64,000 nucleotides of DNA from Candidatus Poribacteria bacterium (GCA_965222225.1 CBDCTK010000002.1:4448001-4512000); one strand, 5' to 3'; shown: positions 15,414-57,210, counted from the stretch's first letter. Numbers and translations are program-made. The notes: generated by a model not told the origin, from the sequence alone.

Positions 15414-15449
15414 GGATCTCTATCGCAGTCGCTATTCGCTCCCTTGATC
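15414..15449 (+). repeat. 36-bp insertion unit U1
   Basis: GGATCTCTATCGCAGTCGCTATTCGCTCCCTTGATC. Confidence 0.85.
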
Positions 15450-15476
15450 CCACGCTGGGGCTTTTAGAGGCTGGTA

Positions 15477-15512
15477 GGATTTCTATCGCGCTCATTATTC
15501 ATTCGCTTGATC
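15477..15512 (+). repeat. 36-bp insertion unit U2, splitting a REP stem
   Basis: GGATTTCTATCGCGCTCATTATTCATTCGCTTGATC between GGCTGGT and GCAGTGCGCACCCTAC. Confidence 0.85.
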
Positions 15513-15574
15513 GCAGTGCGCACCCTACAAACTGTACTTTTCAACCAGGCTCTAAGAGTTTAATTGAATAATAA

Positions 15575-16618
15575 TAGGAGTTACGCAGTTGAGTGAAAAT
15601 AGGTTATAATTTGAGTATGAATCCCCCTAAATATACTGACACTGACTATATTGATTTCTTGGTAGCCGCTCAGAAAAGTTACAGTTGTCTTGAATCGGAA
15701 AAAGTTCAACCCCAAGCTGATAATCCTCCGGCTCACGATTCGATAACACGGCTCTTGCATCGAGAGGAACCCGATACTGGCAAACTGTGGCAAGAATCGA
15801 GAAATCAGGTGAAATTAGAATCCGGAATTTTAGTTATAGATGACTCGACTCTGGATAAACCTTATTCACAAAAGATTGAACTCGTGACAAAACACTGGTC
15901 AGGGAAACACCACCGAGTTGTGAATGGGATTAACTTGGTCACTTTGCTCTGGACGGATGGCGATAGACATATTCCGTGTGATTATCGAATCTATGATAAA
16001 GCCAAAGACGGCTTGACGAAGAATGAGCATTTCCGCGCCATGCTTGAAGAAGCGAAAACACGCGGTTTTGCTCCTGAATGTGTGTGTTTTGATAGTTGGT
16101 ATGCCAGTCTAAAGAATCTAAAAGCGGTGCGAGGTCATGGTTGGAAGTGGCTTACTCGTCTAGCTGCCAACCGACTTGTCAGTAAAGATTATTCCGGTAA
16201 CCGTCCGGTGAGTACGCTTCCGAGTGAATCAACAGGTACAATTGTCCATCTCAAAGGCTATGGATTGATTCGAGTATTTAAGGTTGACACTCCAGAAGGT
16301 GACATTGAATATTGGGCAACGAATGATTTACAGATGGACGAATTGACGCGTCTCAAATATGCCGAATGGTCTTGGACAATAGAAGAATATCATCGCGGGA
16401 TTAAGCAATTTGTTGGCATTGAACGCGCACAAGTGCGCTCTGCTCGCACTCAAAGAAATCATATCGGTTTAGCGCTGAGAGCCTTTCTGAGAATTGAGCA
16501 CTATTGCTATCATACCGGTATCAGTTGGTTTGATGCAAAACTCTCTATTGTCAGAGATGCGGTACGGGCTTATTTGGCACAACCTCTTTATACGCTTCAG
16601 CCAACTGCGTAACTCCTA
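15575..16618 (+). mobile_element. IS701-like insertion sequence, copy 1 (1044 bp)
   Basis: TIRs TAGGAGTTACGCAGTTG / CAACTGCGTAACTCCTA; 5-bp target duplication AATAA (15570-15574 / 16619-16623). Confidence 0.92.
15593..16612 (+). CDS. IS701-family DDE transposase
   Basis: VIDDSTLDKPYS, CFDSWY, W.IEEYHRGIKQ; stop codon lies inside the right TIR. Confidence 0.9.
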   Translation: MKIGYNLSMNPPKYTDTDYIDFLVAAQKSYSCLESEKVQPQADNPPAHDSITRLLHREEPDTGKLWQESRNQVKLESGILVIDDSTLDKPYSQKIELVTKHWSGKHHRVVNGINLVTLLWTDGDRHIPCDYRIYDKAKDGLTKNEHFRAMLEEAKTRGFAPECVCFDSWYASLKNLKAVRGHGWKWLTRLAANRLVSKDYSGNRPVSTLPSESTGTIVHLKGYGLIRVFKVDTPEGDIEYWATNDLQMDELTRLKYAEWSWTIEEYHRGIKQFVGIERAQVRSARTQRNHIGLALRAFLRIEHYCYHTGISWFDAKLSIVRDAVRAYLAQPLYTLQPTA

Positions 16619-16666
16619 AATAAGTGGGAAACCCATCTTTAGTCATTTGAGTTGCTATATACTTGA

Positions 16667-16702
16667 GGAGTTCAATCGCGTTCCCTATTCGGTCACTTGA
16701 TT
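16667..16702 (+). repeat. 36-bp insertion unit U3
   Basis: GGAGTTCAATCGCGTTCCCTATTCGGTCACTTGATT. Confidence 0.75.
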
Positions 16703-16724
16703 GCCTCTGACGTTTTCAAAGGCT

Positions 16725-16746
16725 GGTGCGCATTGCGCACCCTACA
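16725..16746. repeat. Intact GTAG-type REP palindrome
   Basis: GGTGCGCATTGCGCACC-CTACA (GTAG foot on the minus strand). Confidence 0.85.
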
Positions 16747-16997
16747 AGATGTGGACTTGTCTCGCGCTCGCGTAAAGACGCGTAAAGAGTTGTGGGTTCG
16801 ATTCTTTTGCGAATTGTCAAGCCTAGGTGATTTTAAGTGGGAAAGGGCGGGTAAAACATGACGCGGTTAAGCCTTGTTTCATTATCGTGTCTAAGATACC
16901 CCCGGGGATTGTAGGATCGGGTGTGAATTGAAATGCCCGCAGTAAGCAAGGGTGCTTTTAGGCACCTCAGACACTTTGGCTCAGAAGGAATTAGCGG

Positions 16998-17519
16998 ATG
17001 TCTGATGAGTTGATTCATATCGAAACACCATTTCAGTTTTCTGAATCAAATAGACAGGAAATTGATGAACTCATCCAGCGGTATCCGGTGAAGGAAGCCG
17101 CTATGCTTCCGGTTCTCCATATCGCGCAGAAGCAGGCGGGCTACATCACTCCGGGCGTCATGAAACACGTCGCAGAGCTCCTAGAGGTGTCCGTGATGAA
17201 GGTCAAGGATGTGGTGACGTTCTATCCGATGTTCTTCGAGGAGCCTGTGGGCAAATATGTTATTCGTGTCTGTTATACGCTGCCTTGTGCTCTACGCGAT
17301 TGCAAATTGGTGCTGGATCATCTGAAAGAAAAACTCGGAACAGATGTGGCGTCCGAGACGAACTTGGCGAAGGGGACAACCGATGACGGGAAATTTACCA
17401 TTCTCAAATCGGAGTGCCTAGCATCTTGTGATGTTGCCCCGGTGATGATGGTCAACGACGACCTACACAAAAACCTCACACCAGAAAAAGTCGATGATCT
17501 CTTGGACGGCTTAACGTAA
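16998..17519 (+). CDS. nuoE: NADH-quinone oxidoreductase subunit E
   Basis: VVTFYPMF, C-x4-C (CYTLPC), ECLASC..APVMMVN. Confidence 0.95.
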   Translation: MSDELIHIETPFQFSESNRQEIDELIQRYPVKEAAMLPVLHIAQKQAGYITPGVMKHVAELLEVSVMKVKDVVTFYPMFFEEPVGKYVIRVCYTLPCALRDCKLVLDHLKEKLGTDVASETNLAKGTTDDGKFTILKSECLASCDVAPVMMVNDDLHKNLTPEKVDDLLDGLT

Positions 17520-17534
17520 GGTGCGGGCTAAACC

Positions 17535-19007: not shown

Positions 19008-19126
19008 AATGTGACGCAATCTATTGCACGTTTCAGATTATCTGTCACATGTAGAAATGGCATAAGATGCTTGCTGCAGGGAACCCGATGCGCTAGGCCC
19101 GAGTTTAGCCGGCGAAATGCTTCAAA

Positions 19127-19906
19127 ATGATTCGCGTCTCTCATCTCACAAAAAAATATGGGACGAGCATCGCCGTTGATGATATCAGCTTTGAGGTTCC
19201 AGCGGGGCAGATTGTTGGTTACTTGGGACCCAACGGCGCTGGAAAAAGCACAACACTGAAAATGCTTGTCGGTTTGGTTGAACCGACCGCAGGCGACATC
19301 TCAGTCGCCGGTTGTGATGCGGCGACCGAAATGCTTGAACTCAAAAAGCGCATCGGATACGTTCCCGAAGATGCACAGCTATTTGAGAGCCTAACCTTGG
19401 CTGAACATCTTCAGTTAACGGGGAGGCTCTACCACGTTGAAGAGGCACTTATCGGCAAGAAAATCCTTGAGTTCGCTCGTCTTTTTGACATGGCGTCGTA
19501 TACCAAACAGAAAATAAGCAGCTTTTCACAAGGAATGCGCCAGAAACTGCTGATTATTTCCGCCTTGCTGCACAATCCGGATGTTCTGTTATTTGACGAA
19601 CCCTTTACCAATCTGGATGTGATGACAGTCACGTTCATGAAAACGATGTTACAGCGGCTCGCCGAGGCAGGTAAAACGATTCTATACTGTACACATATCC
19701 TTGAAGTGGCGGAAACACTCTGTCCCCGGGTTATGATTATCAACGAAGGAAAACTAATCGCCGATGCCAATGTTGATGAACTGCGGCGGATGACAAGTCA
19801 AACGGAGTTGGCTCAAATCTTCGCGCAACTCACCGACACTGTCAGAGGAATCAATCAAAGAACCGAGGATGCGGTTCGGATTGTGATGGGAGACACCGAT
19901 GCTTGA
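19127..19906 (+). CDS. ABC transporter ATP-binding protein
   Basis: Walker A GPNGAGKST, signature FSQGMRQ, Walker B LLFDEP, H-loop. Confidence 0.93.
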   Translation: MIRVSHLTKKYGTSIAVDDISFEVPAGQIVGYLGPNGAGKSTTLKMLVGLVEPTAGDISVAGCDAATEMLELKKRIGYVPEDAQLFESLTLAEHLQLTGRLYHVEEALIGKKILEFARLFDMASYTKQKISSFSQGMRQKLLIISALLHNPDVLLFDEPFTNLDVMTVTFMKTMLQRLAEAGKTILYCTHILEVAETLCPRVMIINEGKLIADANVDELRRMTSQTELAQIFAQLTDTVRGINQRTEDAVRIVMGDTDA

Positions 19907-21542: not shown

Positions 21543-21620
21543 GCTACTTTCTTTCAGTTTTCGGTTTCGTCTTAGCACGCACCACGTATCATTCTCTTCG
21601 TCCCAGATTTTGAGGAAATC

Positions 21621-23291: not shown

Positions 23292-23325
23292 GCTGGAGAT
23301 AGAAGACCATAGGGGAAATCTCTTA

Positions 23326-23454
23326 GAGCCTGTTTGAAAAGTAGGTAGCAAAGTCATTGTTTGGTCTTTTGAGGCTCAAAATCGTTGGATTTTCAAGGCA
23401 TTTACCCCAAAATAGCCTTCCTCTAAGACGGATTCGGACTTTTCAAACAGGTTC
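23326..23454. mobile_element. 129-bp MITE with IS5-like TIRs
   Basis: GAGCCTGTTTGAAAAGT / ACTTTTCAAACAGGTTC, flanked by TTA on both sides. Confidence 0.88.
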
Positions 23455-23501
23455 TTAGTCGTGGGACTTATGTACTTCTGTTTGGCGCGAAGGATATTAC
23501 G

Positions 23502-23705: not shown

Positions 23706-23787
23706 TGGCAATCCAAGCCGAGCGGGAAACAGTTGTGAGTGTCTCGCAGCTGCCTGAGCACTACACAAAACCTGAAAAGGGCGAAAT

Positions 23788-24972: not shown

Positions 24973-25008
24973 CGAAGGGTTGCGGCATTCTGCACAGGTA
25001 GGAGAGAG

Positions 25009-40576: not shown

Positions 40577-40745
40577 GAATCTCTATCGCACTCGTTATTC
40601 ACTTGATTGATCGCCGCCGGGGCTTTTGGAGAGGTTGGTAAGAGCTCTATGGGATTTCTATCGCGGTCACTATCCGTTCCCTTGATCGTTATCCACTCGT
40701 TTGATCGCAGTGCGCACCCTACAAATGTACTTTTCAAATAGGCTC
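40577..40745. repeat. MITE-end/REP composite with units U4 (40577-40612), U5 (40652-40687) and an outer unit split by U5
   Basis: U4 GAATCTCTATCGCACTCGTTATTCACTTGATTGATC; AGAGCTCTAT[U5]GTTATCCACTCGTTTGATC inside REP GGT...GCAGTGCGCACCCTAC; TIR ACTTTTCAAATAGGCTC-TTA. Confidence 0.82.
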
Positions 40746-42581: not shown

Positions 42582-43994
<1,413 letters not shown>

Positions 43995-46746: not shown

Positions 46747-46774
46747 TCAAATTTGTTGGGAAATTCGAATATAC

Positions 46775-47818
46775 TAGGAGTTACGCAGTTGGCTGAAGCG
46801 TATAAAGAGGTTGTGCCAAATAAGCCCGTACCGCATCTCTGACAATAGAGAGTTTTGCATCAAACCAACTGATACCGGTATGATAGCAATAGTGCTCAAT
46901 TCTCAGAAAGGCTCTCAGCGCTAAACCGATATGATTTCTTTGAGTGCGAGCAGAGCGCACTTGTGCGCGTTCAATGCCAACAAATTGCTTAATCCCGCGA
47001 TGATATTCTTCTATTGTCCAAGACCATTCGGCATATTTGAGACGCGTCAATTCGTCCATCTGTAAATCATTCGTTGCCCAATATTCAATGTCACCTTCTG
47101 GAGTGTCAACCTTAAATACTCGAATCAATCCATAGCCTTTGAGATGGACAATTGTACCTGTTGATTCACTCGGAAGCGTACTCACCGGACGGTTACCGGA
47201 ATAATCTTTACTGACAAGTCGGTTGGCAGCTAGACGAGTAAGCCACTTCCAACCATGACCTCGCACCGCTTTTAGATTCTTTAGACTGGCATACCAACTA
47301 TCAAAACACACACATTCAGGAGCAAAACCGCGTGTTTTCGCTTCTTCAAGCATGGCGCGGAAATGCTCATTCTTCGTCAAGCCGTCTTTGGCTTTATCAT
47401 AGATTCGATAATCACACGGAATATGTCTATCGCCATCCGTCCAGAGCAAAGTGACCAAGTTAATCCCATTCACAACTCGGTGGTGTTTCCCTGACCAGTG
47501 TTTTGTCACGAGTTCAATCTTTTGTGAATAAGGTTTATCCAGAGTCGAGTCATCTATAACTAAAATTCCGGATTCTAATTTCACCTGATTTCTCGATTCT
47601 TGCCACAGTTTGCCAGTATCGGGTTCCTCTCGATGCAAGAGCCGTGTTATCGAATCGTGAGCCGGAGGATTATCAGCTTGGGGTTGAACTTTTTCCGATT
47701 CAAGACAACTGTAACTTTTCTGAGCGGCTACCAAGAAATCAATATAGTCAGTGTCAGTATATTTAGGGGGATTCATACTCAAATTATAACCTATTTTCAC
47801 TCAACTGCGTAACTCCTA
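46775..47818 (-). mobile_element. IS701-like insertion sequence, copy 2 (inverted relative to copy 1)
   Basis: Same TIRs and length; 5-bp target duplication TATAC (46770-46774 / 47819-47823). Confidence 0.92.
46781..47800 (-). CDS. IS701-family DDE transposase
   Basis: Protein identical to 15593-16612 in the ORF track. Confidence 0.9.
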   Translation of the reverse strand: MKIGYNLSMNPPKYTDTDYIDFLVAAQKSYSCLESEKVQPQADNPPAHDSITRLLHREEPDTGKLWQESRNQVKLESGILVIDDSTLDKPYSQKIELVTKHWSGKHHRVVNGINLVTLLWTDGDRHIPCDYRIYDKAKDGLTKNEHFRAMLEEAKTRGFAPECVCFDSWYASLKNLKAVRGHGWKWLTRLAANRLVSKDYSGNRPVSTLPSESTGTIVHLKGYGLIRVFKVDTPEGDIEYWATNDLQMDELTRLKYAEWSWTIEEYHRGIKQFVGIERAQVRSARTQRNHIGLALRAFLRIEHYCYHTGISWFDAKLSIVRDAVRAYLAQPLYTLQPTA

Positions 47819-48030
47819 TATACAACAGAATTTATCCAAGAATAATACCTTATTCACGTAATTTCGTCAAGGGCAATGCAAAGCGTCCTCTACCTCGATT
47901 TTGGTCGAACGTGCAATGATTAGGGCGTGGAGGAAAGAGAGGGGATTGGACGGATGGAAGGATGGAAGAGACGTGGAGACAGAGTTTTCGAGAAGAAACA
48001 CGGATTCCATTGTCTGAACCGCGGATTAAG

Positions 48031-48066
48031 GGATCTCTATCGCACTCACTATCCGTTCGCTTGATT
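48031..48066 (+). repeat. 36-bp insertion unit U6
   Basis: GGATCTCTATCGCACTCACTATCCGTTCGCTTGATT within a run of short GGATT repeats. Confidence 0.85.
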
Positions 48067-48206
48067 AGATTAAAGGATTTCACGGATTAAACGTGCCTAA
48101 TCGGTGTTGTATTGCGCCTTGAAGATTCGTATTGCGGACCGGTTTACTGCGGAGTCGCAATGGAGGCCTGGGTTGGCTGTACGTTGTGGGCAACGCGTTT
48201 GGATAT

Positions 48207-48390
48207 GGTGGGCAATGCCCACCCTACAAAAGCTCTATCGCACGGGATTTTCTATGGGAATGCTATCGCATTCGCTATTCGCTCATTTGATCCTTCCTTA
48301 ATCAGTCGGTTGATCGGTCGATATTCACTCCCTTGATCTATTCGCTCAGTCGATCCCTCAATCTATATTGTTCGTTTGATTCCAATCTAC
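48207..48390 (+). repeat. REP followed by a nested stack of 36-bp units (full U7 at 48257-48292)
   Basis: GGTGGGCAATGCCCACCCTACA; left halves AGCTCTATCGCAC and GGGATTTTCTAT; U7; right halves ending TTGATC/TCGATC/TTGATT at 48315, 48338, 48355 and 48381. Confidence 0.82.
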
Positions 48391-48555
48391 GCTACTGAAT
48401 TATTCCGTATGCGTTCAGTGTTTGTATCTGTTATAATCTGGAAAAAGCATTCTCCGTTCTAGTCCAGTGGCAGATTAGCAATCACTGAAAAATGTAGTGT
48501 CCCTGAAATCCCTATCGTCGTGCGAAACCGAAACGTACGGCATTTGTCATGAGGA

Positions 48556-49734
48556 ATGAAAATGGATATCTATAAATCACCTTCAGCGGTGGATTCTGAA
48601 GGAACAACCAAGTTCTACCGTGCCACGGCATTTGCCGACGCGAAGCCGGAGCTTGCGGCGCCAGGGGCTACGCCAGAGCGTTTGGAACACTTGAAAGAGC
48701 ACGGTTTCGTCATTATCACCGACTTCGTTGGCAGCCCTTGGATTCCGATTCTGCGTGAAGCCGGTAGGCGTGTCACCGAGGCATGTACTCCCGAAAACGG
48801 CTATAGTAAGATTGACTGCTCCAAAGGCTATGTGCATCGGGCAGCAGAGGATGAGCCCTGGGCAATTCGGGGATTGATTCATCCGGCTTTCGGCGAGCCG
48901 AGTTTTGCCGAATTTTATGGTTCGCCGGAGTACCTTCGCTTTGTCCATGATTGGTGCCACGGTTTGCAACCGGAGGATCTTGTCATGCTTCCGATGCTCC
49001 TCTGGTGCAATCCTAGGAGGAACGAGAATGGACCAAGTTGGCATCGAGACACGACATGGTGGGGCACTGGAAAGGGTTACTTTGCGCAGCGCCCGGAACA
49101 GGAGGGACCGGAAGCCTATTCGGAGGAGGTTGAGAGGCGCCGCTGGAAAGAAATCCAAGCAGAAAACTTGAATTCAATTGTCGAGCGGAATGGCGTGAGC
49201 ATGTTTCTTGCGCTTGCCGATGATGAGTGCCATGAACTGATTCCCGGTAGCAACCATCGGTGGCGGACGCCGTTTGAGCACGATGTGCTACTACCGAAAT
49301 CCATGAAGGAGCAGGGAGTGCCGTACACGCCGAGTTGGAACGGCGTCGACCCGTTGCCGAATCAGGTCGCCATTCGGTTAAAGCCCGGGGAAGCACTCAT
49401 CCGGAACGGCGTTACCATCCACACAGGGCACACTGTGCCTGATCGCGAGCGCAACACACTGGCACTCGGTTGGAGTAAGTGGTCGGGGCCTTTCACGGGG
49501 GAGTCAGCCATGTCGGATGTGCGTAACGCATGGCAACTCGATCTTGTCGTGCGTGAGGCGTTGCCGTACGAATGGATGAAGACTACTTGGGATCGTTGGG
49601 CAGAGACCGTGAAACTAGGGGATACGCTTGAGGACCGCTACACCCCGTTTGACATCAATAACATCAAGGCGGGGCAAATACTGGGTTGGCGAGGCGAGTT
49701 GGAGCGTCAGGCTGCGGCGGCTGGGGATGCGTGA
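48556..49734 (+). CDS. Phytanoyl-CoA dioxygenase (PhyH)-like Fe(II)/2OG oxygenase
   Basis: L.EHGFVII, WHRD (HxD), IPGS.H, L.PGE......IH.G. Confidence 0.75.
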   Translation: MKMDIYKSPSAVDSEGTTKFYRATAFADAKPELAAPGATPERLEHLKEHGFVIITDFVGSPWIPILREAGRRVTEACTPENGYSKIDCSKGYVHRAAEDEPWAIRGLIHPAFGEPSFAEFYGSPEYLRFVHDWCHGLQPEDLVMLPMLLWCNPRRNENGPSWHRDTTWWGTGKGYFAQRPEQEGPEAYSEEVERRRWKEIQAENLNSIVERNGVSMFLALADDECHELIPGSNHRWRTPFEHDVLLPKSMKEQGVPYTPSWNGVDPLPNQVAIRLKPGEALIRNGVTIHTGHTVPDRERNTLALGWSKWSGPFTGESAMSDVRNAWQLDLVVREALPYEWMKTTWDRWAETVKLGDTLEDRYTPFDINNIKAGQILGWRGELERQAAAAGDA

Positions 49735-49959
49735 GAACCGTTCCACACGTTGGATTAATCTCACAGCGTTAGCCTGCTCTAGGTTGGAGATGTGTATTGG
49801 AAGGGAGGTAGAAGCCGAGTTTTCGAGAAAAAAGGGATACGTCGCGAGCTCGCTCCTACAAATCGAACGTGCAATGAATTGCACTACTACAAACCGAGAA
49901 GACGCACAACGGAGAGGGGCCATCAAAGATAGGAAATTGAGAATCTGATGTTTGGAGAT

Positions 49960-50015
49960 GGTGGGCAGGGAATCTCTATCGCACTCACTGTCCGTTCCTT
50001 TGATCCCACCCTACA
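49960..50015 (+). repeat. REP with 36-bp unit U8 (49970-50005) in its loop
   Basis: GGTGGGCA-GG[GAATCTCTATCGCACTCACTGTCCGTTCCTTTGAT]CCCACCCTACA. Confidence 0.85.
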
Positions 50016-50160
50016 AAACTGCTTCTTCCAATTGGATTTCGATAACCTCTAGTAGATTCTTTCTTGCCTCTTCAATGTCCTTTCCACAACTCACAACGTC
50101 TATCTCTGGGCAGTAGGCGACGTACATGTTGCCCTCTTTCCATATTTCTTCCGTTATACG
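50011..50160 (-). pseudogene. HicB-family antitoxin remnant
   Basis: *RITEEIWKEGNMYVAYCPEIDVVSCGKDIEEARKNLLEVIEIQLEE; 5' end lost; stop supplied by the REP GTAG. Confidence 0.65.
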
Positions 50161-50215
50161 TTATAACAAGATTCTTCACTGTAGCCTCCTCAATCTATAT
50201 GAGCTCGGGTCAAAA

Positions 50216-51442
50216 CTATGGCATGCCGCCAATAATGTTCTGAACTTCGGTTTCCAAGTCAAGGGTGATTTGCTGGGTCGTCTGCCTCTTTTCTTTTTTG
50301 TAAGTCTCATAGGAATCCAAGAGGTTCTTGGGTGTTCCGATACGCAGGAAGGCATCCAAGGGGCCTTTGACTTTTGACTGACCGTAAACTTCGACTTCGA
50401 GGCGCGTGATGACCTCCAGGAAGCGTTCTTGAGAGGGATCTTCGCCGATATAGCCTTCGTAGATCGCAATGGAGTTTACGATGCGGCGGAGGTCGGTGTA
50501 AAACTGCCGAAACTTGTCAACGCGCTGCGCGTGAACTCCCCGTTCATACTCCGTCATCTCATCCACATCCCGGTAAATCCCCTCATCGATCCGATTCTGG
50601 ATTGCCCGGACCCGCCTGAGCGGGTTCCGGTCTGATAGAGGTGCGAGTTCCAAGAAGTTCTCCATCTGCGACAGAATGTGCTCTCGCATCTGCTGAATGC
50701 GTTCATTCAGTGTGCCCCCTTCATCTAGGCGCAGGTGATACTCTCTCGCCAGAATAGCCAGTAGGCTGCCGCCCACGTTCTTCACACGGTCGTACAGGTC
50801 TGCAGGTCGGTTGGCAGGGTCGGGGAGGACGCTCTGTTCCAAATTTGTAAGCGCCTCCTCGATTTGATCCCACATGTCGTTCCTGTAGATGTACTTTATC
50901 CCGACAGGCACCAGATAGAGGGGTTTCAGGTCCCCCGCCTTCTCCATGTCGTTGAGTGCCCACAAGCCGAACTGCACAATGCCACTCTCGAACGGCATGA
51001 TGGTCTCGTTCTGATGCGAGATTTCGCCTTCGCCGAAGATGACCAGCTTCCGCGCCCCTTTGGCGAGCGTTTCTCGTGTCATCCGAAACGAGTCGCGGTC
51101 GACAGCACCACGCACGACGGAGTAGACGCCGAGCCGCGTCATGACAAAGCCCCTCAATTTCAACCCGGCTATTTTGCGGTCAAAGGTTTCGCGTGCGCAC
51201 ATGTACCGAAATCGCTCACCATAGCGAGTTGACAGGGCGAACATTACATGGGGGTCGGCGCGGGAGGGGTGATTCGGCACCAGAATAGTTGGGTAGCCTT
51301 CAGTCGATTTCAGCCTGTCCAGGGATTCGGAGTCGATATCGACATGGGAGACCTTGGTTGTAAGCCGCATCAGGATTGGTAGCAGCAACTTTACGCTTCC
51401 GATTACGAGCCCATTTTCTTTTGGCGGTTTGAAATCTAGCAT
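50216..51442 (-). CDS. PlsC-like phospholipid/glycerol acyltransferase
   Basis: NHPSRAD (HX4D), IFGEG, VPVGIKY. Confidence 0.88.
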   Translation of the reverse strand: MLDFKPPKENGLVIGSVKLLLPILMRLTTKVSHVDIDSESLDRLKSTEGYPTILVPNHPSRADPHVMFALSTRYGERFRYMCARETFDRKIAGLKLRGFVMTRLGVYSVVRGAVDRDSFRMTRETLAKGARKLVIFGEGEISHQNETIMPFESGIVQFGLWALNDMEKAGDLKPLYLVPVGIKYIYRNDMWDQIEEALTNLEQSVLPDPANRPADLYDRVKNVGGSLLAILAREYHLRLDEGGTLNERIQQMREHILSQMENFLELAPLSDRNPLRRVRAIQNRIDEGIYRDVDEMTEYERGVHAQRVDKFRQFYTDLRRIVNSIAIYEGYIGEDPSQERFLEVITRLEVEVYGQSKVKGPLDAFLRIGTPKNLLDSYETYKKEKRQTTQQITLDLETEVQNIIGGMP

Positions 51443-51522
51443 TGGTTCACTCCAAGGTTATTTGCCTTTGAAACCAGAACTGTCCTATAAGACCTATCTT
51501 CTTTGTGTTCTTGCGAATTCCT

Positions 51523-51543
51523 GTAGGGTGCGCACTGCGCACC
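51523..51543. repeat. Intact GTAG-type REP palindrome
   Basis: GTAG-GGTGCGCACTGCGCACC. Confidence 0.85.
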
Positions 51544-51559
51544 ATCGCCACCAAAAGGG

Positions 51560-53572
51560 TCACGCATGATGACATTTTGAAAGAAGGTGTTTGAGACATT
51601 TGCCAACATGACAACGAAATTCTTCATACTCATTTTTTTTCACTGGCGAAGCACTCGGATCGGCGTGCGAAACAGTGTCTTTGTGACGTCGAACAAATAA
51701 CTGAAGGACTTGATCGTGCGTTTCGCTGGGCACCTTCCGTTCCCTAAGGAATTCACCTACGTTTTTTTTCTTATAGTCTCTTAATGAGCACGGGGCATTC
51801 TTATCCAATAATTGGCAACTGGCGTGAAACTCGTTAAATAAATGGCTAAGCGCAACTGAATATTCCTCTTTTTGCTCACACAAGACTCGCAATCGAATCT
51901 GTTCGATAACATGTGGTTTAGCTATTTTCAAAGTCTGTGCTTTTGTCAATTCGTAATAACCAAGTGGTCTTGATGGCAAGCCTTTCCGTTTGAAAATATC
52001 CATGATTCGTTTCATCGCTGGGTCTTGTTTGAGAAGTTGGGGCAATTTGCTCGGGGCAAACTCAGTCTGACAGAGATACTGTAGCGCGAGACATATATCC
52101 CTTGACGTTAACGGTTTTTTCTGGCGAAGAAATTTCTGAAATTGCTCAGACACATCACTGCATTTCGAGATTAAAACGATAATCGGCTTTGAATAAGCAT
52201 TAACTAACTCGAAATCAAAGCCGTTAGAACTCAGAAAATATTCTCTAAGTCTATCCATGTAGTTGTATTTGGGACGTACTAACATCCTTTGGACGTTTTC
52301 ATCAAATACCCCCTTGAGCCCTTCCATAAAATTTTCTTCATTGAACTGTTCTTGTACGCTCCTTGGCTCGAAATGTTCCCGAAAGTAAGGTGCTATGGGA
52401 AAGCGCTTCAGTTTCTCCAACTGTTCAAAGATGTGCTCAATTTTAACGGCAGGCTTAACGGTAGTTTTGTCCTCTACGTCGTCATCTCGAGATATCATTT
52501 TCAAATTTCTTGTGAGTGCATCTCTATCGCTTTTCTCTTTTAGTCGGAAAATCTTTGTTTTTGGATTGAGTCGAAGTCCTAATTTTTCGTGAAGACAATC
52601 TGAAATACGGGCTGCTAACGGATTAAACAGAGGTCTCAAATCACTATCCTGTTCTTTAAAAGTGATTGATATATATATGTCGTCCACGTAGCGGATTATG
52701 GCATGATCTTGTATTGATTCGTTGCTGCGACAAAGTTCATCATCAAGATATGAATCCCCAAAGGCAAGAAAAAGATATCCGATGAAATCGGAGATAATGT
52801 TGTTGTCTGATTGCGGTATGCCTGAAGTTCCGCACGCCACAAAATCAAAAAAAGAAACAAGCTGACCATATGTTTTCTCGCCAAAGTAAAGTTTTTTCTT
52901 TACACTGTAATTGACGCGAGTTTCAAGTAAATCAAGAAGTCTCGGAATGCTAAGTTCATCGAAAAAGTTTTGTATGTCCAAGCGAATAACAACCTTGCGC
53001 TCTGTGTTTTCGTCTTTTTCCTTTTCCACCTCTTTGCAGAAGTTTTCATAGTGTGGTACGTGATAGATTGGTTCCTTGATGGGCTTCGGCTTTTTAATGA
53101 TGTGTCCTTGTTCGTTGAACTGTAGATTCCCTCCGTAGCCGGCGCGGATTCGATCGTGAGTGCTATAATTTTCTTGCAGATAATCTTTGGAAAGTTCAAT
53201 CAAATAAATTCCCACGGCGTTGTAAAGGACGCGCATAGGGCATGTCATAAACTTGTAACGACGCAGACCAAGATTAGATTTTGGGATAGTGTATGGAACA
53301 ATCGCAAACTCCCTGCTCAAGCCGTAAAACAGGTTATTGTCAACTGTCGTGCTGAAATACCTTTTCGACTTCAACCTGTTGAACGACTTACTCAGATTTT
53401 CGTAGTGAGACATCTCAGGCGTCCGGAAAAATCTATTTGTTTTTTTTCTTTCTAGTTGATACTCCAACAATTCTAAAGCTTGCAGCCAATGACGGTACTT
53501 CAAAAAATGGCTAAATTGGGGCACGTCATATTCGTTGGGGTTCTTTTTCCGTACGACGGTTTTTTTGTTCAT
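51560..53572 (-). CDS. AbiA-like reverse transcriptase with probable C-terminal HEPN domain
   Basis: YTIPKSNLGLR, RLDIQNFFD, GIPQS.NNIISDFIG, IRYVDD, LGLRLNPKT; C-terminal RRHKDTVSH (R-x6-H). Confidence 0.8.
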   Translation of the reverse strand: MNKKTVVRKKNPNEYDVPQFSHFLKYRHWLQALELLEYQLERKKTNRFFRTPEMSHYENLSKSFNRLKSKRYFSTTVDNNLFYGLSREFAIVPYTIPKSNLGLRRYKFMTCPMRVLYNAVGIYLIELSKDYLQENYSTHDRIRAGYGGNLQFNEQGHIIKKPKPIKEPIYHVPHYENFCKEVEKEKDENTERKVVIRLDIQNFFDELSIPRLLDLLETRVNYSVKKKLYFGEKTYGQLVSFFDFVACGTSGIPQSDNNIISDFIGYLFLAFGDSYLDDELCRSNESIQDHAIIRYVDDIYISITFKEQDSDLRPLFNPLAARISDCLHEKLGLRLNPKTKIFRLKEKSDRDALTRNLKMISRDDDVEDKTTVKPAVKIEHIFEQLEKLKRFPIAPYFREHFEPRSVQEQFNEENFMEGLKGVFDENVQRMLVRPKYNYMDRLREYFLSSNGFDFELVNAYSKPIIVLISKCSDVSEQFQKFLRQKKPLTSRDICLALQYLCQTEFAPSKLPQLLKQDPAMKRIMDIFKRKGLPSRPLGYYELTKAQTLKIAKPHVIEQIRLRVLCEQKEEYSVALSHLFNEFHASCQLLDKNAPCSLRDYKKKNVGEFLRERKVPSETHDQVLQLFVRRHKDTVSHADPSASPVKKNEYEEFRCHVGKCLKHLLSKCHHA

Positions 53573-53696
53573 TGATTTGGTAATTCCCTGCTTAAACTTT
53601 CATTCCGGTCATGAGATTTGTGAACTGCTAGTGGAACCATGCAAAATCCGCGCAATTCCAAGTCTTTGCTGTCTACGACCTAGGCATTTCGACTGT

Positions 53697-54023
53697 CTAC
53701 GAAACATCACCTAGCTCTTCCAAATCTTGCTGTCGCTCCTCCCAATCTGGGAGATAGGCGTGCATGAAGCTTTTGAATAGCCTCCCGTGATTCGGGGCGA
53801 GGAGATGAACCAACTCATGCACAATCACGAATTCGCCCAACGCCGCCGGCAGACGCAGCAACTCGGTGTTCAAGGTCAATCGCCCAGTTGTGGATATAGA
53901 TGCCCACTTTTTCCGCATGTCCCGCAGATGTACCTCGCGCACCGTCACGCCCATGCGCTCAGCCCAACCCCAGACCGCGCCTTTCAAATCGCTCGAATCA
54001 CTCCATATACTTTCGGCGTTCAT
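53697..54023 (-). CDS. YgjP/M48-like zinc metallopeptidase, short
   Basis: MRKKWAS, LN..L, VHELVHL...NH...F; ATGA overlap with the hsdR stop. Confidence 0.85.
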   Translation of the reverse strand: MNAESIWSDSSDLKGAVWGWAERMGVTVREVHLRDMRKKWASISTTGRLTLNTELLRLPAALGEFVIVHELVHLLAPNHGRLFKSFMHAYLPDWEERQQDLEELGDVS

Positions 54024-56890
54024 ACGCGTTGCAAATCCAACAATGTGTTTGTTGTTTCTACTAGCTTGCTTGTCTCAACGATAGATCTTAGCGCGATGTA
54101 GAATCTCCGCCGCAACTGGCTTGCTTGTTGTTCATTCCATTGATAATCAGGATATTGGTCAAATATGCTGTTGAAATTTCGCGCATGCCCCGTTGAAATG
54201 TCGTCCGCATACCCCTGAAGAACCTTGTAAATCGCATAAGCGTTATCGTCAAGGTTCAGTCGCACGGTTTCAATTGTCGCTTGATTGCACTCTTCCGCAA
54301 ACCTCTCAAATTCAGCCAAAGCCTCTTGCGTCGTCATTTGCCGATTCTCATAAGCCTCCGCGACCACGTCTGCCCGTTCTCCGATAGATATGAGAAACGG
54401 CTTTGAACGGCTTTCCTCCGTGACGGTCTTACTCAAAACCTTCCTCAAATTCAACACCTTCACGGTGTCTGATAACTCGCTATCGGCGACTTCCCGCAAT
54501 GTGTCCGCGTTCAATTCATGGATGGCGCCCGGAAGTTCAAAGTTGTCGCTCTCCGTATGCTCCTGTAATAATTCGCGCGTTTTCTTGACCAACTCTTTAT
54601 CGACGTAGGGGTTGTCCGCGTAGGCATTACGAATTAAGGCATAGAGCGACGCGAGCGCTTTATAGTCGTTCAAGAACGGACGCAGAAATGCGTCGGGAGA
54701 AAGGATGTTGTAGATGTCTTGGATCTGCCTAAAAAACTTGAAAAAAGCCTCTCGCCCCTCCTTGTCCTCAAAGTAGGCGATTGCCCGCTCTTTTCCCCTA
54801 TCGTCCCAACTATGCGCATAGGGCAGATAACTCGGCGCAGTTTCCTCGAACCGCGCGGCAAAGAGGGTTTTGAGCACGTCTAGATTCTGAATTACGCTTC
54901 CCACCACGTCAGAATCAAAGGCAAGGGCTTTCTCCAGATTCTCGAAGATGCCGACGAAATCCAAAACAAACCCATACGGCTTCACCAGTCCCTCGTTGTC
55001 CTCGTAGGGTCGGTTGACGCGGGCGATTGCCTGTAGCAACACGTGATCGCGCATGGGTTTGTCAAGGTACATGCAGTAAAGAATCGGCGCATCAAAACCG
55101 GTCAACAGCTTTTCAGTTACCATCAGTATCTTTAGGGGGTCGCTCTTGTCGGCAAATCGCTTCCGAATCTCCTTTTCTTCGTCCTCGTTACGGTGATGCG
55201 CTTTCAAGTTCTCGGCGTCTTGATGGTGCGGGGAATATACCACCTCCGAATACTCTGGCGGTAGATGCCTATCAAGCGCCTCCTTGTACAACGCGCACGC
55301 CTCACGGTCTACGCCGACCAGAAACGCCTTGAAGCCCATCGGCTCAACATTGTCGCGGAAGTGTCCTGCGACATACCGGGCAATGTCTTCAACCCGATTG
55401 GGAGCTTTCATCATCTGCTTCAACCCGACTGCGCGGTCTAGGATGGCGTTCAGCTCCTCCACGTCGCTCACGCCTTCCGCCGCCGCAAGCCCCAGGAACT
55501 CCCGCTCCAGTGTCTCGCTGTCTACCTGTAAACCGGACGGGGAAAGCGCATAGTTCAACCGCACGGTAGTGCCGTCCTCAATGGACTCGGCAATTGCGTA
55601 TTTGTCAAGGTATCCCTGCTCATCGTCCGCGCCAAATACTCTGAAGGTCCCCTTGCCGTGGGCAAGCCGATCAATCGGCGTGCCGGTGAAACCGATGTAG
55701 GTGGCATTGGGAAGCGCCCCCATGAGGAAGTTCCCCAGATCGCCTCCGGTGGTGCGGTGGGCTTCATCAACCAGTATCGTCACGCTCTCGCGAGTGTTGA
55801 TTCTTGCCGGTATGTCGTCAAACTTATGAATGGTTGAAACCACCAAGCCGCGATAGTCGGAAGCCAAAATCGACCGTAGGTCGCGTTTGCTCTCCGCAAC
55901 TTTGGGTGTCCTAATACCGTAAGCCGTGATATTTTTGAACAACTGGCTCTCCAACTCATTGCGGTCCACCAGCATCAACACGGTGGGTTTTTCCGTTTCC
56001 CCGCCGCGGCGCAACAATCGGGAAGCGATGGTTATCATCGTCAGCGTCTTACCGCTGCCCTGCGTGTGCCAGACCAGTCCTCGCCGCTTGATGGGGTCGT
56101 GAACCCGTTCAACCACACCCTCCACGGCACGGGTTTGGTGCTGGCGCAACACAACTTTGGTCAGCTCGTCATCCCTGCTGAGGAAGATAATCGACTCGCG
56201 CAGGGCTTTCAGGAATCGGCCGGGATCGAAGAACGTCTTGACCTTATCCTCGTAGCTAGCGGGGTCGTCGGCTTTCCAGTTGAACAGATTCTTGCGGCTG
56301 GTGTTCCACGTGACGCCGTAGAAAAAATCCAAAAGTTGTGTGACGCCGAACAGTTGCGCGAAGGTAAACATCTCGGGTGTTTCCCGGTGGTAGCGGCGAA
56401 TCTGATCGACACCTTCCGCCAATCCGTCCCGCTTGTGCGCGGATTTTGTCTCCACCACCGCCACCGGAATCCCATTAATCAGAAACACCACATCCGCACG
56501 GTTTCGGTACACAGCGTTTCTTTGCCACCACTCATCAGTGACATGGAATAGATTGCTGTCAGGGGTATCGAAATCAATCAGCGTGACGTTCCGCTCACGC
56601 TCTTGGCTCGGGACAAAGATTGACCGCTCGCCGCGCAACCAAGCCAGTGCCTCCCGGTTTCCCTCACGAGTCGAATTAAGCAATTTTAACTGACGCAGAA
56701 TTTCCTTGCAGAGTCCCTCATCCAGTACCTCCCTGTTGAGTTTCAGGAGTTGCGAGTCCAGCACGTCCGCAAAATACAGCTTGGTATTGCCGCCGCGCAT
56801 CTGCAGCGCCTGCGATGCCGAAATGGACTCCCAGCCAATTTCATTGGCGTACCTGAGCATGGGATTTTGGACTGCATCACGTTCTGACAT
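54020..56890 (-). CDS. hsdR: Type I restriction endonuclease subunit R
   Basis: RADVV..INGIP..VVETK, WHTQGSGKT, DEAHR, FTGTP, LLTGFDAP, QAIARVNR; likely start MSERDAVQ at 56890 (the longer ORF call runs into the MITE). Confidence 0.95.
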   Translation of the reverse strand: MSERDAVQNPMLRYANEIGWESISASQALQMRGGNTKLYFADVLDSQLLKLNREVLDEGLCKEILRQLKLLNSTREGNREALAWLRGERSIFVPSQERERNVTLIDFDTPDSNLFHVTDEWWQRNAVYRNRADVVFLINGIPVAVVETKSAHKRDGLAEGVDQIRRYHRETPEMFTFAQLFGVTQLLDFFYGVTWNTSRKNLFNWKADDPASYEDKVKTFFDPGRFLKALRESIIFLSRDDELTKVVLRQHQTRAVEGVVERVHDPIKRRGLVWHTQGSGKTLTMITIASRLLRRGGETEKPTVLMLVDRNELESQLFKNITAYGIRTPKVAESKRDLRSILASDYRGLVVSTIHKFDDIPARINTRESVTILVDEAHRTTGGDLGNFLMGALPNATYIGFTGTPIDRLAHGKGTFRVFGADDEQGYLDKYAIAESIEDGTTVRLNYALSPSGLQVDSETLEREFLGLAAAEGVSDVEELNAILDRAVGLKQMMKAPNRVEDIARYVAGHFRDNVEPMGFKAFLVGVDREACALYKEALDRHLPPEYSEVVYSPHHQDAENLKAHHRNEDEEKEIRKRFADKSDPLKILMVTEKLLTGFDAPILYCMYLDKPMRDHVLLQAIARVNRPYEDNEGLVKPYGFVLDFVGIFENLEKALAFDSDVVGSVIQNLDVLKTLFAARFEETAPSYLPYAHSWDDRGKERAIAYFEDKEGREAFFKFFRQIQDIYNILSPDAFLRPFLNDYKALASLYALIRNAYADNPYVDKELVKKTRELLQEHTESDNFELPGAIHELNADTLREVADSELSDTVKVLNLRKVLSKTVTEESRSKPFLISIGERADVVAEAYENRQMTTQEALAEFERFAEECNQATIETVRLNLDDNAYAIYKVLQGYADDISTGHARNFNSIFDQYPDYQWNEQQASQLRRRFYIALRSIVETSKLVETTNTLLDLQRV

Positions 56891-56964
56891 TACGCTCTCC
56901 GAGGGGAGGCAAACGGAAATCAGCAGCGAGCGGGAAAAGTAATTTATCAGATTTTCTTGATTTA

Positions 56965-57210
56965 GAGCCTGTTTGAAAAGTGCAGTTTGTAGGGTGCGCA
57001 CTGCGCACCAGCCTCTAAAAGCCCCAGAGGGGCGGAAGGTGTATAGAAACACCAAAACCCCGTGCACCTAAGCCCCAGCGTGGGATCAAGGAAGCGAATA
57101 GCGACTGCGATAGAGATTCTACAGGTATGTAGCAGCCAACAATGAAAACATGAAAAAACTTTTTACAAATGACCAGAAATGGCTTTGCCACCGATTATTC
57201 AACCTGGCTC
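56965..57210. mobile_element. MITE homologous to 15323-15552 (inverted), with intact REP (56989-57009) and unit U9 (57084-57119, minus strand)
   Basis: TIRs GAGCCTGTTTGAAAAGT / ATTATTCAACCTGGCTC, TTA on both sides; two GCCCCAG hairpins. Confidence 0.85.

Follow-up and report, generated by a model that had tools for sequence, protein, structure and literature searches.

What is the 36-base unit that recurs nine times in a single stretch of a bacterial chromosome, and by what route did it get there? The stretch analysed here (the window) comprises 64,000 nt of the 5.7-Mb genome of a sponge symbiont, Candidatus Poribacteria, in which the unit, referred to as element E, is a DNA repeat of about 1000 copies. 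The original prediction, made from the window alone, had taken E for a cassette of fixed length with hypervariable slots, newly made by a process such as error-prone or partly templated reverse transcription and patched into nicked hairpins, where it would silence selfish repeats and leave a chronological record.

The repeat and its hairpin

All nine copies in the window are real: they match a degenerate 36-mer with 0-2 mismatches at the coordinates and on the strands of Table 1, and 100 dinucleotide-preserving shuffles of the window contain no match (0 expected by chance). A genome-wide scan with the same 36-mer returned 177 exact matches and 1001 matches with up to 4 mismatches, 849 of the latter being distinct sequences. 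The predicted length of 36 bp holds approximately, the unit measuring 35-37 bp because some heads are one base longer. The consensus has the ends GRATY… and …TTGATY, which share only the four bases GATC, and these in part of the copies only. While no two window copies are identical, as had been observed, the same is not true of the genome, where one 36-mer recurs 24 times; most of the 12 of these that were listed lie in or beside the same REP context. The expected intergenic location applies to 888 of the 1001 copies, which fall outside crude ORFs of at least 100 aa (covering 82% of the chromosome). Copies are irregularly spaced and clustered in other repeats, and occur as singlets and nests, not as inverted doublets. 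No Rfam covariance model matched the window at its gathering score, and the sole match near two copies, to a miRNA, was at chance level (E value 7.6); E also lacks a poly-A tail, a master locus resembling a template and any matching ncRNA family.

Table 1. Copies of element E in the window, with the repeats around them ([E] marks the inserted copy)
Feature	Position	Strand	Setting
U1	15414..15449	+	In 5' arm of GCCCC-N3-GGGGC hairpin; host is a larger composite repeat, TGTTGGCTGCTACAAACCTGT-A-[E]-CCACGCTGGGGCTTTTAGAGGCTGGT
U2	15477..15512	+	Inside GTAG REP (GGCTGGT-A-[E]-GCAGTGCGCACCCTACAA); folded strand is the GTAG strand
U3	16667..16702	+	Two mismatches; directly past 3' inverted repeat of a DDE insertion sequence
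U4	40577..40612	+	5' of GCCGCCGGGGC hairpin remnant
Two-level nest	40641..40706	+	Outer head 40641-40651, outer tail 40688-40706, inner U5 40652-40687; host is a GTAG REP (…GGTTGGTA[..]GCAGTGCGCACCCT)
U6	48031..48066	+	Within CGGATTAA-type short repeat
Three-level nest	48231..48355	+	Three heads followed by complete hairpin-tails at 48270-48292, 48293-48315 and 48316-48338 and by a partial tail; innermost full copy U7, 48257-48292
U8	49970..50005	+	Within REP-like stem (GGTGGGCAGG-[E]-CCACCCTACAA)
U9	57084..57119	-	3' arm of GCCCC-AGC-GTGG hairpin (57072-57083); + strand reads as folded strand
Intact hairpin like that of U9	57021-57033		Just upstream of U9
Intact GTAG REP	56989-57009		Just upstream of U9

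Variation among copies is concentrated in four dinucleotide slots, as predicted (1.1-1.6 bits of entropy, compared with 0.1-0.3 bits in the fixed core, about 20 positions of which are strongly conserved over the roughly 1000 copies), with further variation at positions 1-6 and 21-23 that had been understated. The slots do not vary freely: they form a small hairpin of four covarying base pairs. On the complement of the original consensus E reads 5'-GATCAA-[NN-GA-NN-GRATA-NN-GA-NN]-GCGATAGARATYC-3'. The hairpin has two 2-bp helices, free in sequence but complementary, a tandem mismatch of the G·A type and a loop of 5 nt. On its 5' side stands one fixed box; on its 3' side a second fixed box leads into a tail of variable sequence. 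Mutual information across the four stem pairs is 0.42-1.15 bits, and 95.0% of cells are paired on the folded strand as against 58.8% in shuffles (maximum 60.5%). Three or four bases occur at the variable positions, where changes come in complementary pairs, which contradicts adenine-specific variation of the DGR type.

The strand that folds can be read from the exceptions to pairing. On the folded strand 829 of the 1001 copies keep all four pairs, on the other strand 541; mismatches on the latter are A·C or C·A (250 and 132 at its two end pairs) and very rarely G·T. Among 976 cells in 244 copies from other genomes, 796 are Watson-Crick, 117 A·C or C·A, 20 G·T or T·G and 43 other. G·U-type wobbles are thus tolerated on one strand only, that opposite the original consensus, and a single strand of E therefore folds; this strand is also the more stable of the two in 892/1001 copies. 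With RNA parameters the hairpin is barely more stable than shuffles (-4.9 versus -4.1 kcal/mol) and 602/1001 copies adopt one identical structure, whereas with DNA parameters (-1.4 versus -1.8 in shuffles) most copies are unstructured.

Stem haplotypes number 246, fewer than the 312 expected under independence, and the commonest is found in 65 copies where 28 would be expected. In genus g4, too, a few stem haplotypes recur by eye among the copies listed. Such subfamily structure is what would be expected of replicating lineages under a pairing constraint.

Target sites and polarity

E is a discrete unit, its identical copies occurring in unrelated sites without target-site duplication. Its edges are sharp, with flank information below 0.2 bits beyond -1/+3; in 139 pairs of identical 36-mers the two copies are unrelated in both flanks, and for k = 2-8 direct repeats at the flanks are as frequent as in controls. 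Downstream of an IS200-like gene, an orthologous site is filled in G000, G001 and G005 and empty in G002, G004 and G009. At the place apparently corresponding to U8, copies with different stems were seen by eye in two other species of the genus. E is present in 10/10 genomes of genus g1 and 4/4 of genus g4, which belongs to another family, in 2/20 of g6 (1 and 14 stray matches) and in 0/40 of g3; it was not found in the rest of the phylum sample, apart from 1-14 stray matches in six genomes. The element is patchy across genera of one order, and the carriers among the matches listed are all Candidatus Poribacteria records.

Other repeats that form hairpins, namely IS200-like end hairpins and two GTAG REP families, carry E in one orientation at their 3' arm or foot, as does E's own hairpin. 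A flanking 12-mer occurring at least five times in the genome accompanies 745 of 998 copies (75%) but only 478 of 3000 random non-ORF sites (16%). Orientation is constant in 135/141 copies at REP1, 102/111 at REP2 and 49/50 at the ACCTGT flank of the IS200-like hairpin. Excision of 242/1001 copies restores a copy spanning the site, and these self-nested copies sit at preferred positions, with the preferred self-target around GCG^ATAG on the folded strand. At the junctions 0-3 target bases are replaced; junctions are heterogeneous (net +34 to +36, some with extra bases), and the flank consensus is weak (R at -1, S-C-W at +1..+3). In all these respects, that is lodging in repeats and in its own copies (down to the three-level nest), fixed orientation, small losses of target and absence of a duplication, the original prediction was borne out.

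It was equally correct in setting E apart from CRISPR repeats. The genome has a genuine array with a different, 37-nt repeat, and this is itself invaded by about 20 copies of E, which lie in the repeat's hairpin where the repeat is still readable and, at this target, in both orientations. The array adjoins a cas1 gene (PF01867, 235 bits) flanked by inverted copies of E, the density of which near cas1 is explained by the array's wealth of target hairpins.

Arrival at a given kind of site has happened with many different stems, since 38 stem types are found in 71 copies after TCTATG. Other contexts are dominated by one haplotype (21/28 after CGCAGG, 13/18 after CCTGTA), from which it follows that composites of E with a REP or other host also multiply as a whole. 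At least one REP composite, in 24 identical copies, has done so, which speaks against the supposed inactivation of selfish repeats.

The orientation of E tracks local GC skew, used here as a proxy for replication direction, and is unrelated to the transcription of neighbouring genes. Where skew is positive, 307 copies lie on the plus and 165 on the minus strand, and where it is negative, 147 and 379. The odds ratio is 4.8, and 4.5 with one copy per 3 kb, and the pattern is seen under every arrangement of flanking gene strands; relative to flanking genes, 276 copies are co-directional and 317 opposite. Intact GTAG REPs show the same polarity (9/16 versus 33/10). The polarity of E could have been inherited from these host repeats, or could be due to survival instead of insertion. 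The folded strand lies on the C-rich strand, presumably the leading-strand template.

How the element may move

These properties make it very probable that E is a tiny mobile hairpin element of the SDR (small dispersed repeat) or REP kind, and it behaves like one of the smallest mobile elements known. A fuller explanation, to which we assign a probability of about one half, is that Candidatus Poribacteria harbour in E a family of ultra-small mobile DNA elements, non-coding and non-autonomous, that is moved as single-stranded DNA by HUH enzymes. E would move as folded single-stranded DNA exposed during replication, and a resident HUH (Y1) enzyme of the RAYT or IS200 kind would cut and join it in trans, reading the fixed boxes. 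The stems would need only to pair, so that old lineages may have drifted into hundreds of variants.

The HUH step, taken by itself, is tentative and somewhat short of an even chance. In its favour, the natural substrates of RAYT and IS200 enzymes, a hairpin with an adjacent cleavage site, are E's preferred targets. G000 has five matches to the HUH family PF01797, and the IS200-like gene and the RAYT-like genes are each flanked by hairpins of the very kind that E invades. IS200/IS605 TnpA and RAYTs are described as acting on folded single-stranded DNA without target-site duplication, and IS608 and ISDra2 as targeting the lagging-strand template (PMC6006769, PMC3733652). Against it, E has one hairpin where IS200/IS605 ends have two, lacks a GTAG tag, forms less precise junctions than known HUH transposition and folds on the strand that is not the active one in IS608. 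Its hairpin is hardly more stable than shuffled sequence, the skew-linked polarity has the other readings given above, and tolerance of G·U pairs, like the tandem mismatches of G·A, suits RNA as much as DNA. Nor did a partner enzyme emerge, the IS200-like TnpA (P0001) and the RAYT-like family being present also in genera without E. In all loci read there was no cognate RAYT with E flanks; other hairpins stand beside the RAYT-like and IS200-like genes, and the neighbouring copies of E are inserted into these. CRISPR repeats are, to our knowledge, no HUH substrate, yet they are invaded.

A bolder version, which we consider rather unlikely, would make E a hyperparasite of hairpin DNA: a gene-less, 36-base single-strand element that hijacks the HUH nucleases of REPs and IS200, or a structure-specific enzyme, and integrates at the foot of any suitable hairpin, CRISPR repeats included, with its variable 3' tail serving as a guide that chooses the target class as in IS200/IS605. 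If so, E could erode CRISPR arrays and other mobile repeats, and would rank both among the smallest known replicators and as the first element of the SDR type from outside cyanobacteria.

RNA-mediated mobility, in which the folded strand is an RNA whose reverse-transcribed copies are patched into DNA at hairpins, is likewise unlikely. Such a route was reportedly proposed by Elhai et al. for cyanobacterial SDRs, and it would suit the wobble pairs and tandem G·A mismatches, typical of RNA helices, the uniform fold obtained with RNA and not with DNA parameters, and the AbiA-type reverse transcriptase inside the window (PADLOC 254.8 bits). On the other hand, orientation is indifferent to flanking genes (though only master copies would need transcription), poly-A tail, master locus and ncRNA match are all lacking, and reverse transcriptases (PF00078) are not co-distributed with E, being found in 7/10 genomes of g1 (G000 included), 2/4 of g4 and also genomes without E, by a weak model match with which misses are possible.

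That E does not transpose at all, but is copied into hairpins that are stalled or broken, through replication template switching or gene conversion between repeats, or spreads mainly as a passenger of larger multiplying repeats, is quite improbable. Hairpins are natural stall sites, the junctions lack precision, showing small losses as well as extra bases, and composites do multiply whole; sharp, constant edges, identical copies between unrelated flanks and the many stem types at one host position all argue the other way, as do the 20 or so conserved core positions, which imply a sequence-reading partner. It is less probable still that E serves the host as a polar architectural or protein-binding site selected locus by locus, such as a REP bound by nucleoid proteins. 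The strong conservation and the replication-linked polarity, which known polar motifs share, would fit this, but E is patchy among related genera, nests in itself, disrupts CRISPR repeats and is clustered in other repeats instead of evenly spaced.

The originally proposed reverse-transcription product has very little left to recommend it. Insertion into hairpin repeats, deep nests that record the order of events at single loci and a defence-type reverse transcriptase in the window are consistent with it; its central premise is largely refuted by covariation, since the variable positions are complementary pairs without base specificity. An error-prone or partly templated polymerase acting at each event is not supported, on the same grounds and in view of the shared haplotypes and subfamilies and the distribution of reverse transcriptases. 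Neither of its two functions, the chronological record and silencing, found evidence in the data, and silencing is countered by the composite that went on multiplying. Just as improbable is the insertion of ruler-measured DNA by a Cas1-type integrase acting off-target on palindromic repeats, for although the near-fixed length and the cas1 gene between inverted copies beside the invaded array point that way, E forms one conserved family rather than captured foreign DNA, makes no target duplication, in contrast to spacer integration, and is dense there because of the target hairpins.

Relation to known repeats and mobile elements

Several classes of element were considered and rejected. E is not a CRISPR repeat, given its irregular spacing and the different array repeat that it interrupts; not a DGR variable or template repeat, given complementary variation that is not adenine-specific and no co-distributed reverse transcriptase; and not a MITE (TIRs, TSD, 70-300 bp), given its 36 bp, its ends that share only GATC in some copies and the lack of a TSD. 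This last feature would fit a miniature element derived from IS200/IS605, which the single hairpin and weak flank consensus speak against.

Class C group II introns enter DNA immediately downstream (3') of stem-loops such as terminators and attC, in fixed orientation, and nest as twintrons. E resembles them in both habits, but these introns are ribozymes of hundreds of bases with a reverse transcriptase gene, and E has neither. The attC sites of integrons are read as a folded single strand with a free but paired stem and short conserved end boxes, features that E would share, and in chromosomal integrons the folding strand tends to be on the leading-strand template, as that of E presumably is. 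However, attC sites (about 55-140 nt) bound gene cassettes beside an integrase, whereas E is dispersed, cassette-less and nested in other repeats, with boxes that, on inspection of the consensus, are unlike GTTRRRY.

With IS200/IS605 elements and their non-autonomous derivatives, which TnpA moves by single-strand transposition of the peel-and-paste type, E has in common strand-specific folded DNA, no TSD or terminal inverted repeats, an orientation tied to replication and insertion beside a short specific sequence. It differs in its one hairpin instead of two subterminal ones, its overall 36 bp, its imprecise junctions and its weak flank consensus in place of a fixed tetra- or pentanucleotide 5' of the insertion. 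Its polarity is also opposite to that reported for IS608 (PMC6006769).

REPs and REPINs, which are mobilised by RAYTs (REP-associated tyrosine transposases), are nearer. E is extragenic, present in hundreds of copies and a hairpin-forming imperfect palindrome in the 20-40 bp range, with the polarity of the genome's own GTAG REPs, and REPs inside other palindromes are known (PMC3733652). But E carries neither a GTAG nor a CGTC tag (the GTAG around it is that of the REPs it interrupts), its stem is variable where that of REPs is conserved, it does not form the inverted doublets of REPINs, no RAYT in the loci read is flanked by it as cognate repeat, and it inserts into REPs without being one.

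Ahead of REPs, the closest known kind to E is the SDRs of Nostocaceae, here compared by description. As reportedly described by Elhai et al. 2008 (Genome Res 18:1484), SDRs are 21-27 nt long, SDR4-6 form hairpins with compensatory changes, and some SDRs nest in their own copies and in other repeats. We know of no report for SDRs of replication-linked polarity or of invasion of CRISPR repeats or RAYT/IS200 hairpins. E, at 35-37 bp, would be long for the SDR range, and it belongs to another phylum. SDR1-8 come from Nostoc punctiforme and its relatives (PMC4390886, PMC5861425, PMC3116915), and SDRs were reported only in Nostocaceae (PMC5861425). Like them, E is a non-coding, dispersed and highly repeated sequence of tens of bases (1001 copies) with a hairpin backed by compensatory changes, and it nests in itself and in other repeats with a clear site preference, though with junctions that are not fully precise. 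The self-target of E around GCG^ATAG on the folded strand is comparable to the site of SDR5, which inserts precisely between the third and fourth base of GCGATCGC (PMC4390886).

The 36-bp repeat as a discrete unit with a covarying hairpin

The degenerate pattern of the 36-bp repeat (hereafter E) recovers exactly the nine copies originally predicted in the window (U1-U9), at their predicted places and with 0-2 mismatches, and it has no match in 100 dinucleotide-preserving shuffles of the same sequence. Across the genome that contains the window (G000; 5.70 Mb in two contigs, 50% G+C) there are 177 exact matches and 1001 at ≤4 mismatches, representing 849 distinct sequences. The accompanying remark that no two copies are identical holds for the nine copies but not genome-wide, where one exact 36-mer is present 24 times. 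Information content in the flanks is at background from 1 base before and 3 bases after the unit, which identifies E as a discrete entity. Direct repeats flanking E (k = 2-8) do not exceed the control, and hence E inserts without target duplication. Most copies (888/1001) lie outside ORFs (crude ORFs of at least 100 aa, covering 82% of the chromosome). Identical 36-mers with unrelated sequence on both sides occur as 139 pairs, indicating that E has recently moved on its own. Some composites also amplify whole, with one haplotype found in 21 of the 28 copies that follow CGCAGG. A filled/empty pair was found at one orthologous site, 3' of an IS200-like gene, where three species belonging to the genus of G000 have an uninterrupted hairpin and three others an interrupted one. 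Two intergenic regions of the window, aligned across species in search of empty sites, proved too diverged. Contigs from four public runs break at repeats when compared with window 47900-58500; their sole joint skipping a copy of E (48255→48295, 39 bases, runs X3 and X7) has sides of only 22 bases and restores no sensible site.

The four variable dinucleotide slots, which had been described as patterned hypervariability, are instead covarying base pairs of a hairpin. They form two 2-bp helices, pairing positions 14-15 with 29-30 and 18-19 with 25-26 of the consensus strand (the orientation of the original consensus). Mutual information at the four stem pairs is 0.77, 1.00, 1.15 and 0.42 bits, the top four values among 630 position pairs, and 694, 909, 922 and 829 of the 1001 copies are Watson-Crick at the respective pairs. 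The exceptions on the consensus strand are nearly all A·C or C·A (250 at 14-30 and 132 at 19-25), with just 12-20 G·T per stem pair. An A·C mismatch corresponds to G·T (G·U) in the complement, so the opposite strand, termed here the folded strand, is the one that is kept foldable. On this strand 95.0% of the 4004 stem cells can pair, as against 85.5% on the consensus strand, 58.8% when partners are shuffled among copies (maximum 60.5% in 200 shuffles) and 29-55% when partners are offset by one or two columns; copies with no broken stem pair number 829/1001 on the folded strand and 541/1001 on the consensus strand. Other genomes show this pattern too: in 244 of their copies the 976 stem cells comprise 796 that are Watson-Crick, 117 with A·C/C·A, 20 with G·T/T·G and 43 of other kinds. 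Each stem pair lacks one of the two A:T orientations, and the invariant TC/TC of the consensus strand becomes tandem G·A mismatches on the folded strand. With RNA parameters, 602/1001 copies adopt an identical structure that includes an extra 3-bp outer helix (ATC/GAT), and the folded strand is the more stable one in 892/1001. However, the folding energy (-4.9 kcal/mol) is hardly better than that of shuffled sequence (-4.1 kcal/mol), and DNA parameters give no advantage at all, so the case for the structure rests on covariation.

The stems are shared among copies more than independent pairs would allow: 246 stem haplotypes are seen versus 312 ± 5 expected, and the commonest is carried by 65 copies versus 28 ± 3 expected. 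A few haplotypes also recur, by eye, among the copies listed for g4, a second Poribacteria genus. Stems are therefore not drawn anew for each copy, and the pattern is the mark of replicating lineages under pairing constraint rather than of a diversity-generating polymerase. The mechanism originally proposed, with an error-prone or partly templated polymerase, is mostly rejected, and what survives of the idea is its core, a tiny unit that patches into hairpins and into its own copies.

Insertion into hairpins, other repeats and E itself

As predicted, E is enriched within other repeats. A flanking 12-mer with at least five genomic occurrences accompanies 745/998 copies, compared with 478/3000 random non-ORF sites, and both flanks are repeated for 321/998 and 77/3000, respectively. 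A crude motif classification with overlapping classes, which can place about half of the copies, assigns 174 copies to the inside of a like-oriented E, 38 to that of an oppositely oriented one, about 110 to the IS200-like hairpin GCCCC-N3-GGGGC, about 100 and about 50 to two families of GTAG REPs, and about 17 to CRISPR repeats. Insertion of E into itself is borne out by the sequences: removing the unit would restore a spanning copy for 242/1001 copies, at a few preferred positions. The expected constancy of orientation relative to the host is nearly complete in the REPs GTAGGGTGCGCA (135/141) and GTAGGAGC (102/111) and at the ACCTGT flank of the hairpin (49/50), and the folded strand of E coincides with the GTAG strand of the host REP. 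Read in this direction, every type of host hairpin is entered within its 3' arm or at its 3' foot: GGGG^CGACAGG in the IS200-like hairpin, TGCGC^ACC in REPs, GAAAAG(C)^ in CRISPR repeats and hairpin-G^CG^ATAG in E itself.

The junctions are heterogeneous. In the commonest, CGC is replaced by G plus the 36-mer (net +34 bases); others add 36 bases ahead of TC, and at the hairpin A, G, C, CA, CG or GA separates CCTGT from E. The variable tail of E (positions 1-6, the head on the consensus strand) depends on the type of site in which E lies: GGAACT, GGAGTT and GGATTG mostly follow CTATG, and heads one base longer, GGGATTTN, follow CGCACGG or TATCAG. This dependence could reflect a guide-like choice of target, or it could reflect only the survival of those nests whose heads are not direct repeats.

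A CRISPR array of G000 beyond the window has a 37-nt repeat (GTAGCAACCATTGCCSCGAYGAAAAGSGGACTGAAAG) with no relation to E, and holds about 20 copies, single and nested. Many of its repeats are split, and the array may thus be partly disabled; where the position can still be read, E lies within the repeat hairpin. Other repeats occur around individual window copies. The ~250-bp repeat that holds U9 is a composite MITE-like unit carrying the 36-mer along, and the motif surrounding U6, which represents a further small repeat family, also occurs in the matching intergenic region of a second species in the genus.

Features of the window and of chromosome C2 of G000
Feature	Location	Strand	Details
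Two-level E nest	window 40641-40706		
Three-level E nest	window about 48231-48355		three heads, then three tails
~250-bp repeat	window about 56960-57215		GTAG REP and two GCCCC hairpins, one carrying U9; many copies in G000 and related genomes, 75-96% identity
Repeats around U6	window 48000-48110		short CGGATTAA / GGATT-type repeats (cgcggattaag…agattaaaggatttcacggattaaacg)
DDE insertion sequence	window 15581-16616	+	339-aa transposase, DDE_5 / DDE_Tnp_1; ends inverted GGAGTTACGCAGTTG
DDE insertion sequence	window about 46770-47830	-	as above
AbiA-type defence RT	window 51560-53572	-	670 aa; PADLOC AbiA/DRT 254.8 bits, Pfam RVT_1 only 26.8 bits
YgjP-like metallopeptidase fragment	window 53697-54023	-	
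Type I restriction R subunit	window 54020-57067	-	1015 aa
cas operon, then CRISPR array	G000:C2:2694226-2708000		Cas1 (PF01867, 235 bits)
RAYT-like Y1 gene	G000:C2:3088877-3089350		in-frame TAG after codon 51; own REP GTAGGAGCGATCTCCAGGTCGCGATTC on both sides, inverted
Second RAYT-like fragment	C2:3560250-3560528		without N-terminal half; adjoins nested 36-mers

Strand polarity and the search for a partner enzyme

The strand of E is independent of flanking co-directional genes (276 same, 317 opposite) and tracks local GC skew. Regions with a G-rich top strand hold 307 plus-strand and 165 minus-strand copies, compared with 147 and 379 in regions where it is C-rich (odds ratio 4.8, or 4.5 with one copy retained per 3 kb), and the direction holds in every arrangement of flanking-gene strands. 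The consensus strand thus tends to be the G-rich one, presumed from GC skew as a proxy to be leading, and the folded strand tends to be the presumed template of leading-strand synthesis. The polarity of intact GTAG REPs is that of E (9/16 versus 33/10), and it may therefore be common to hairpin repeats in this genome or inherited by E from its hosts. In one complete g4 genome the copies listed form, by eye, long runs that all lie on one strand. Along chromosome C2 of G000 the sign of the GC skew switches over ten times rather than twice, suggesting numerous rearrangements, perhaps between the plentiful repeats, or an atypical mode of replication.

No dedicated gene for E was identified among the HUH, RAYT-like, reverse transcriptase (RT) and cas1 candidates. 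G000 has five matches to PF01797 (Y1 HUH). The intact IS200-like TnpA gene P0001 (NCBIfam IS200 equivalog, 65.8 bits) is among just 8 of 4352 ORFs with close inverted E flanks. It was set aside as the cognate partner because its own flanks are other hairpins, of the GCCCC-N3-GGGGC type at all 16 loci examined (15 genomes), where E is a secondary insertion, and because homologues at 70-77% identity occur in genera free of E. RAYT-like genes were rejected since they have GTAG REPs of their own on either side and occur whether or not E is present; the one interrupted by a TAG may be either a pseudogene or a gene expressed by read-through. Cas1 is among the few genes flanked by inverted copies because the adjoining array has been invaded, and on this explanation it was dropped as a candidate. 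Reverse transcriptases are not co-distributed with E. The AbiA-type RT, the YgjP-like fragment and the restriction R subunit of the window are a small defence island, and weak RT matches in four other genomes of the window's genus (G001, G003, G004 and G005) lie in or beside a stretch syntenic to it. The DDE insertion sequence is present in more than 20 copies at 100% identity in G000, and so has been recently active, and has many copies in related genomes.

Distribution, mechanism and relation to known repeats

All 10 genomes of the window's genus carry the E core (330-824 exact cores each), as do all four genomes of g4, which belongs to another family (114-139 exact cores; relaxing the pattern raises this to 215-227). 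The other genera among the 176 genomes sampled from the phylum, including g6 (20 genomes, same family as g4), yielded none except 1-14 stray matches in six genomes. In the five of these that were re-examined the matches lie on few, mostly small, contigs (the sixth, G125, has one match), for which mis-binning is preferred over transfer. That E occurs in two genera of different families, and was not detected in most of their relatives, is a puzzle. In a scan of one genome per species, all 80 of the 99 matching stretches that were listed are from Candidatus Poribacteria, and viral contigs gave no match. Rfam has no family for E, and nothing relevant was found among the matches listed in a literature search for Poribacteria with REP, REPIN, RAYT, MITE or dispersed repeats.

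The description that fits E best is an ultra-small, non-autonomous mobile repeat whose core would be read by a protein and whose hairpin is free in sequence. It would be moved in trans by an enzyme of the HUH kind acting on single-stranded DNA. The lack of target duplication, the strand asymmetry of E, its fixed relative orientation, its tendency to lodge at the foot of hairpins on which HUH enzymes themselves act, and the replication polarity common to E and REPs all point to such a mechanism. However, several observations count against an HUH step: E has a single hairpin, its junctions are imprecise, its targets include CRISPR repeats, its polarity is the reverse of that of IS608, and no enzyme co-distributed with it was found among the HUH, RAYT-like and RT genes compared. 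Alternatively, E may be moved by an RNA route, of the sort reportedly put forward by Elhai for the small dispersed repeats (SDRs) of Nostoc.

Mobile DNA of a few tens of bases is barely documented. E should be unusually useful for studying its mechanism: copies number about 1000 per genome across some 14 searched genomes, the active strand is clear, the target hairpins are defined, the replication polarity is shared with REPs, and there are natural 'experiments' such as the invaded CRISPR array. It also bears on the annotation and assembly of sponge-symbiont genomes and on the reading of their CRISPR arrays.

By their defining tests, E falls outside the REP-RAYT, IS200/IS605-derived, MITE, CRISPR and DGR classes, and it is rated as a variety of a known but very poorly understood kind of repeat. 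Its nearest precedent, compared by description, is the SDR families, which Elhai is said to have described in 2008 as elements of 21-27 nt that have compensatory hairpins, nest within themselves and enter other repeats. To our knowledge, these have stayed a curiosity of the Nostocaceae, without a mechanism since 2008. E is not a cyanobacterial SDR proper, given that its listed matches are all from Candidatus Poribacteria. One source places the insertion point of SDR5 between bases three and four of GCGATCGC (PMC4390886), and a 2018 article found no SDR-like repeats beyond the Nostocaceae (PMC5861425). E and the SDRs share the compensatory hairpin, the self-nesting and the insertion into other repeats, but differ in length, in host phylum and, as far as can be told, in sequence. 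E is a second lineage, apparently unrelated to the SDRs and with like habits, which suggests a general, overlooked way of moving very short DNA.
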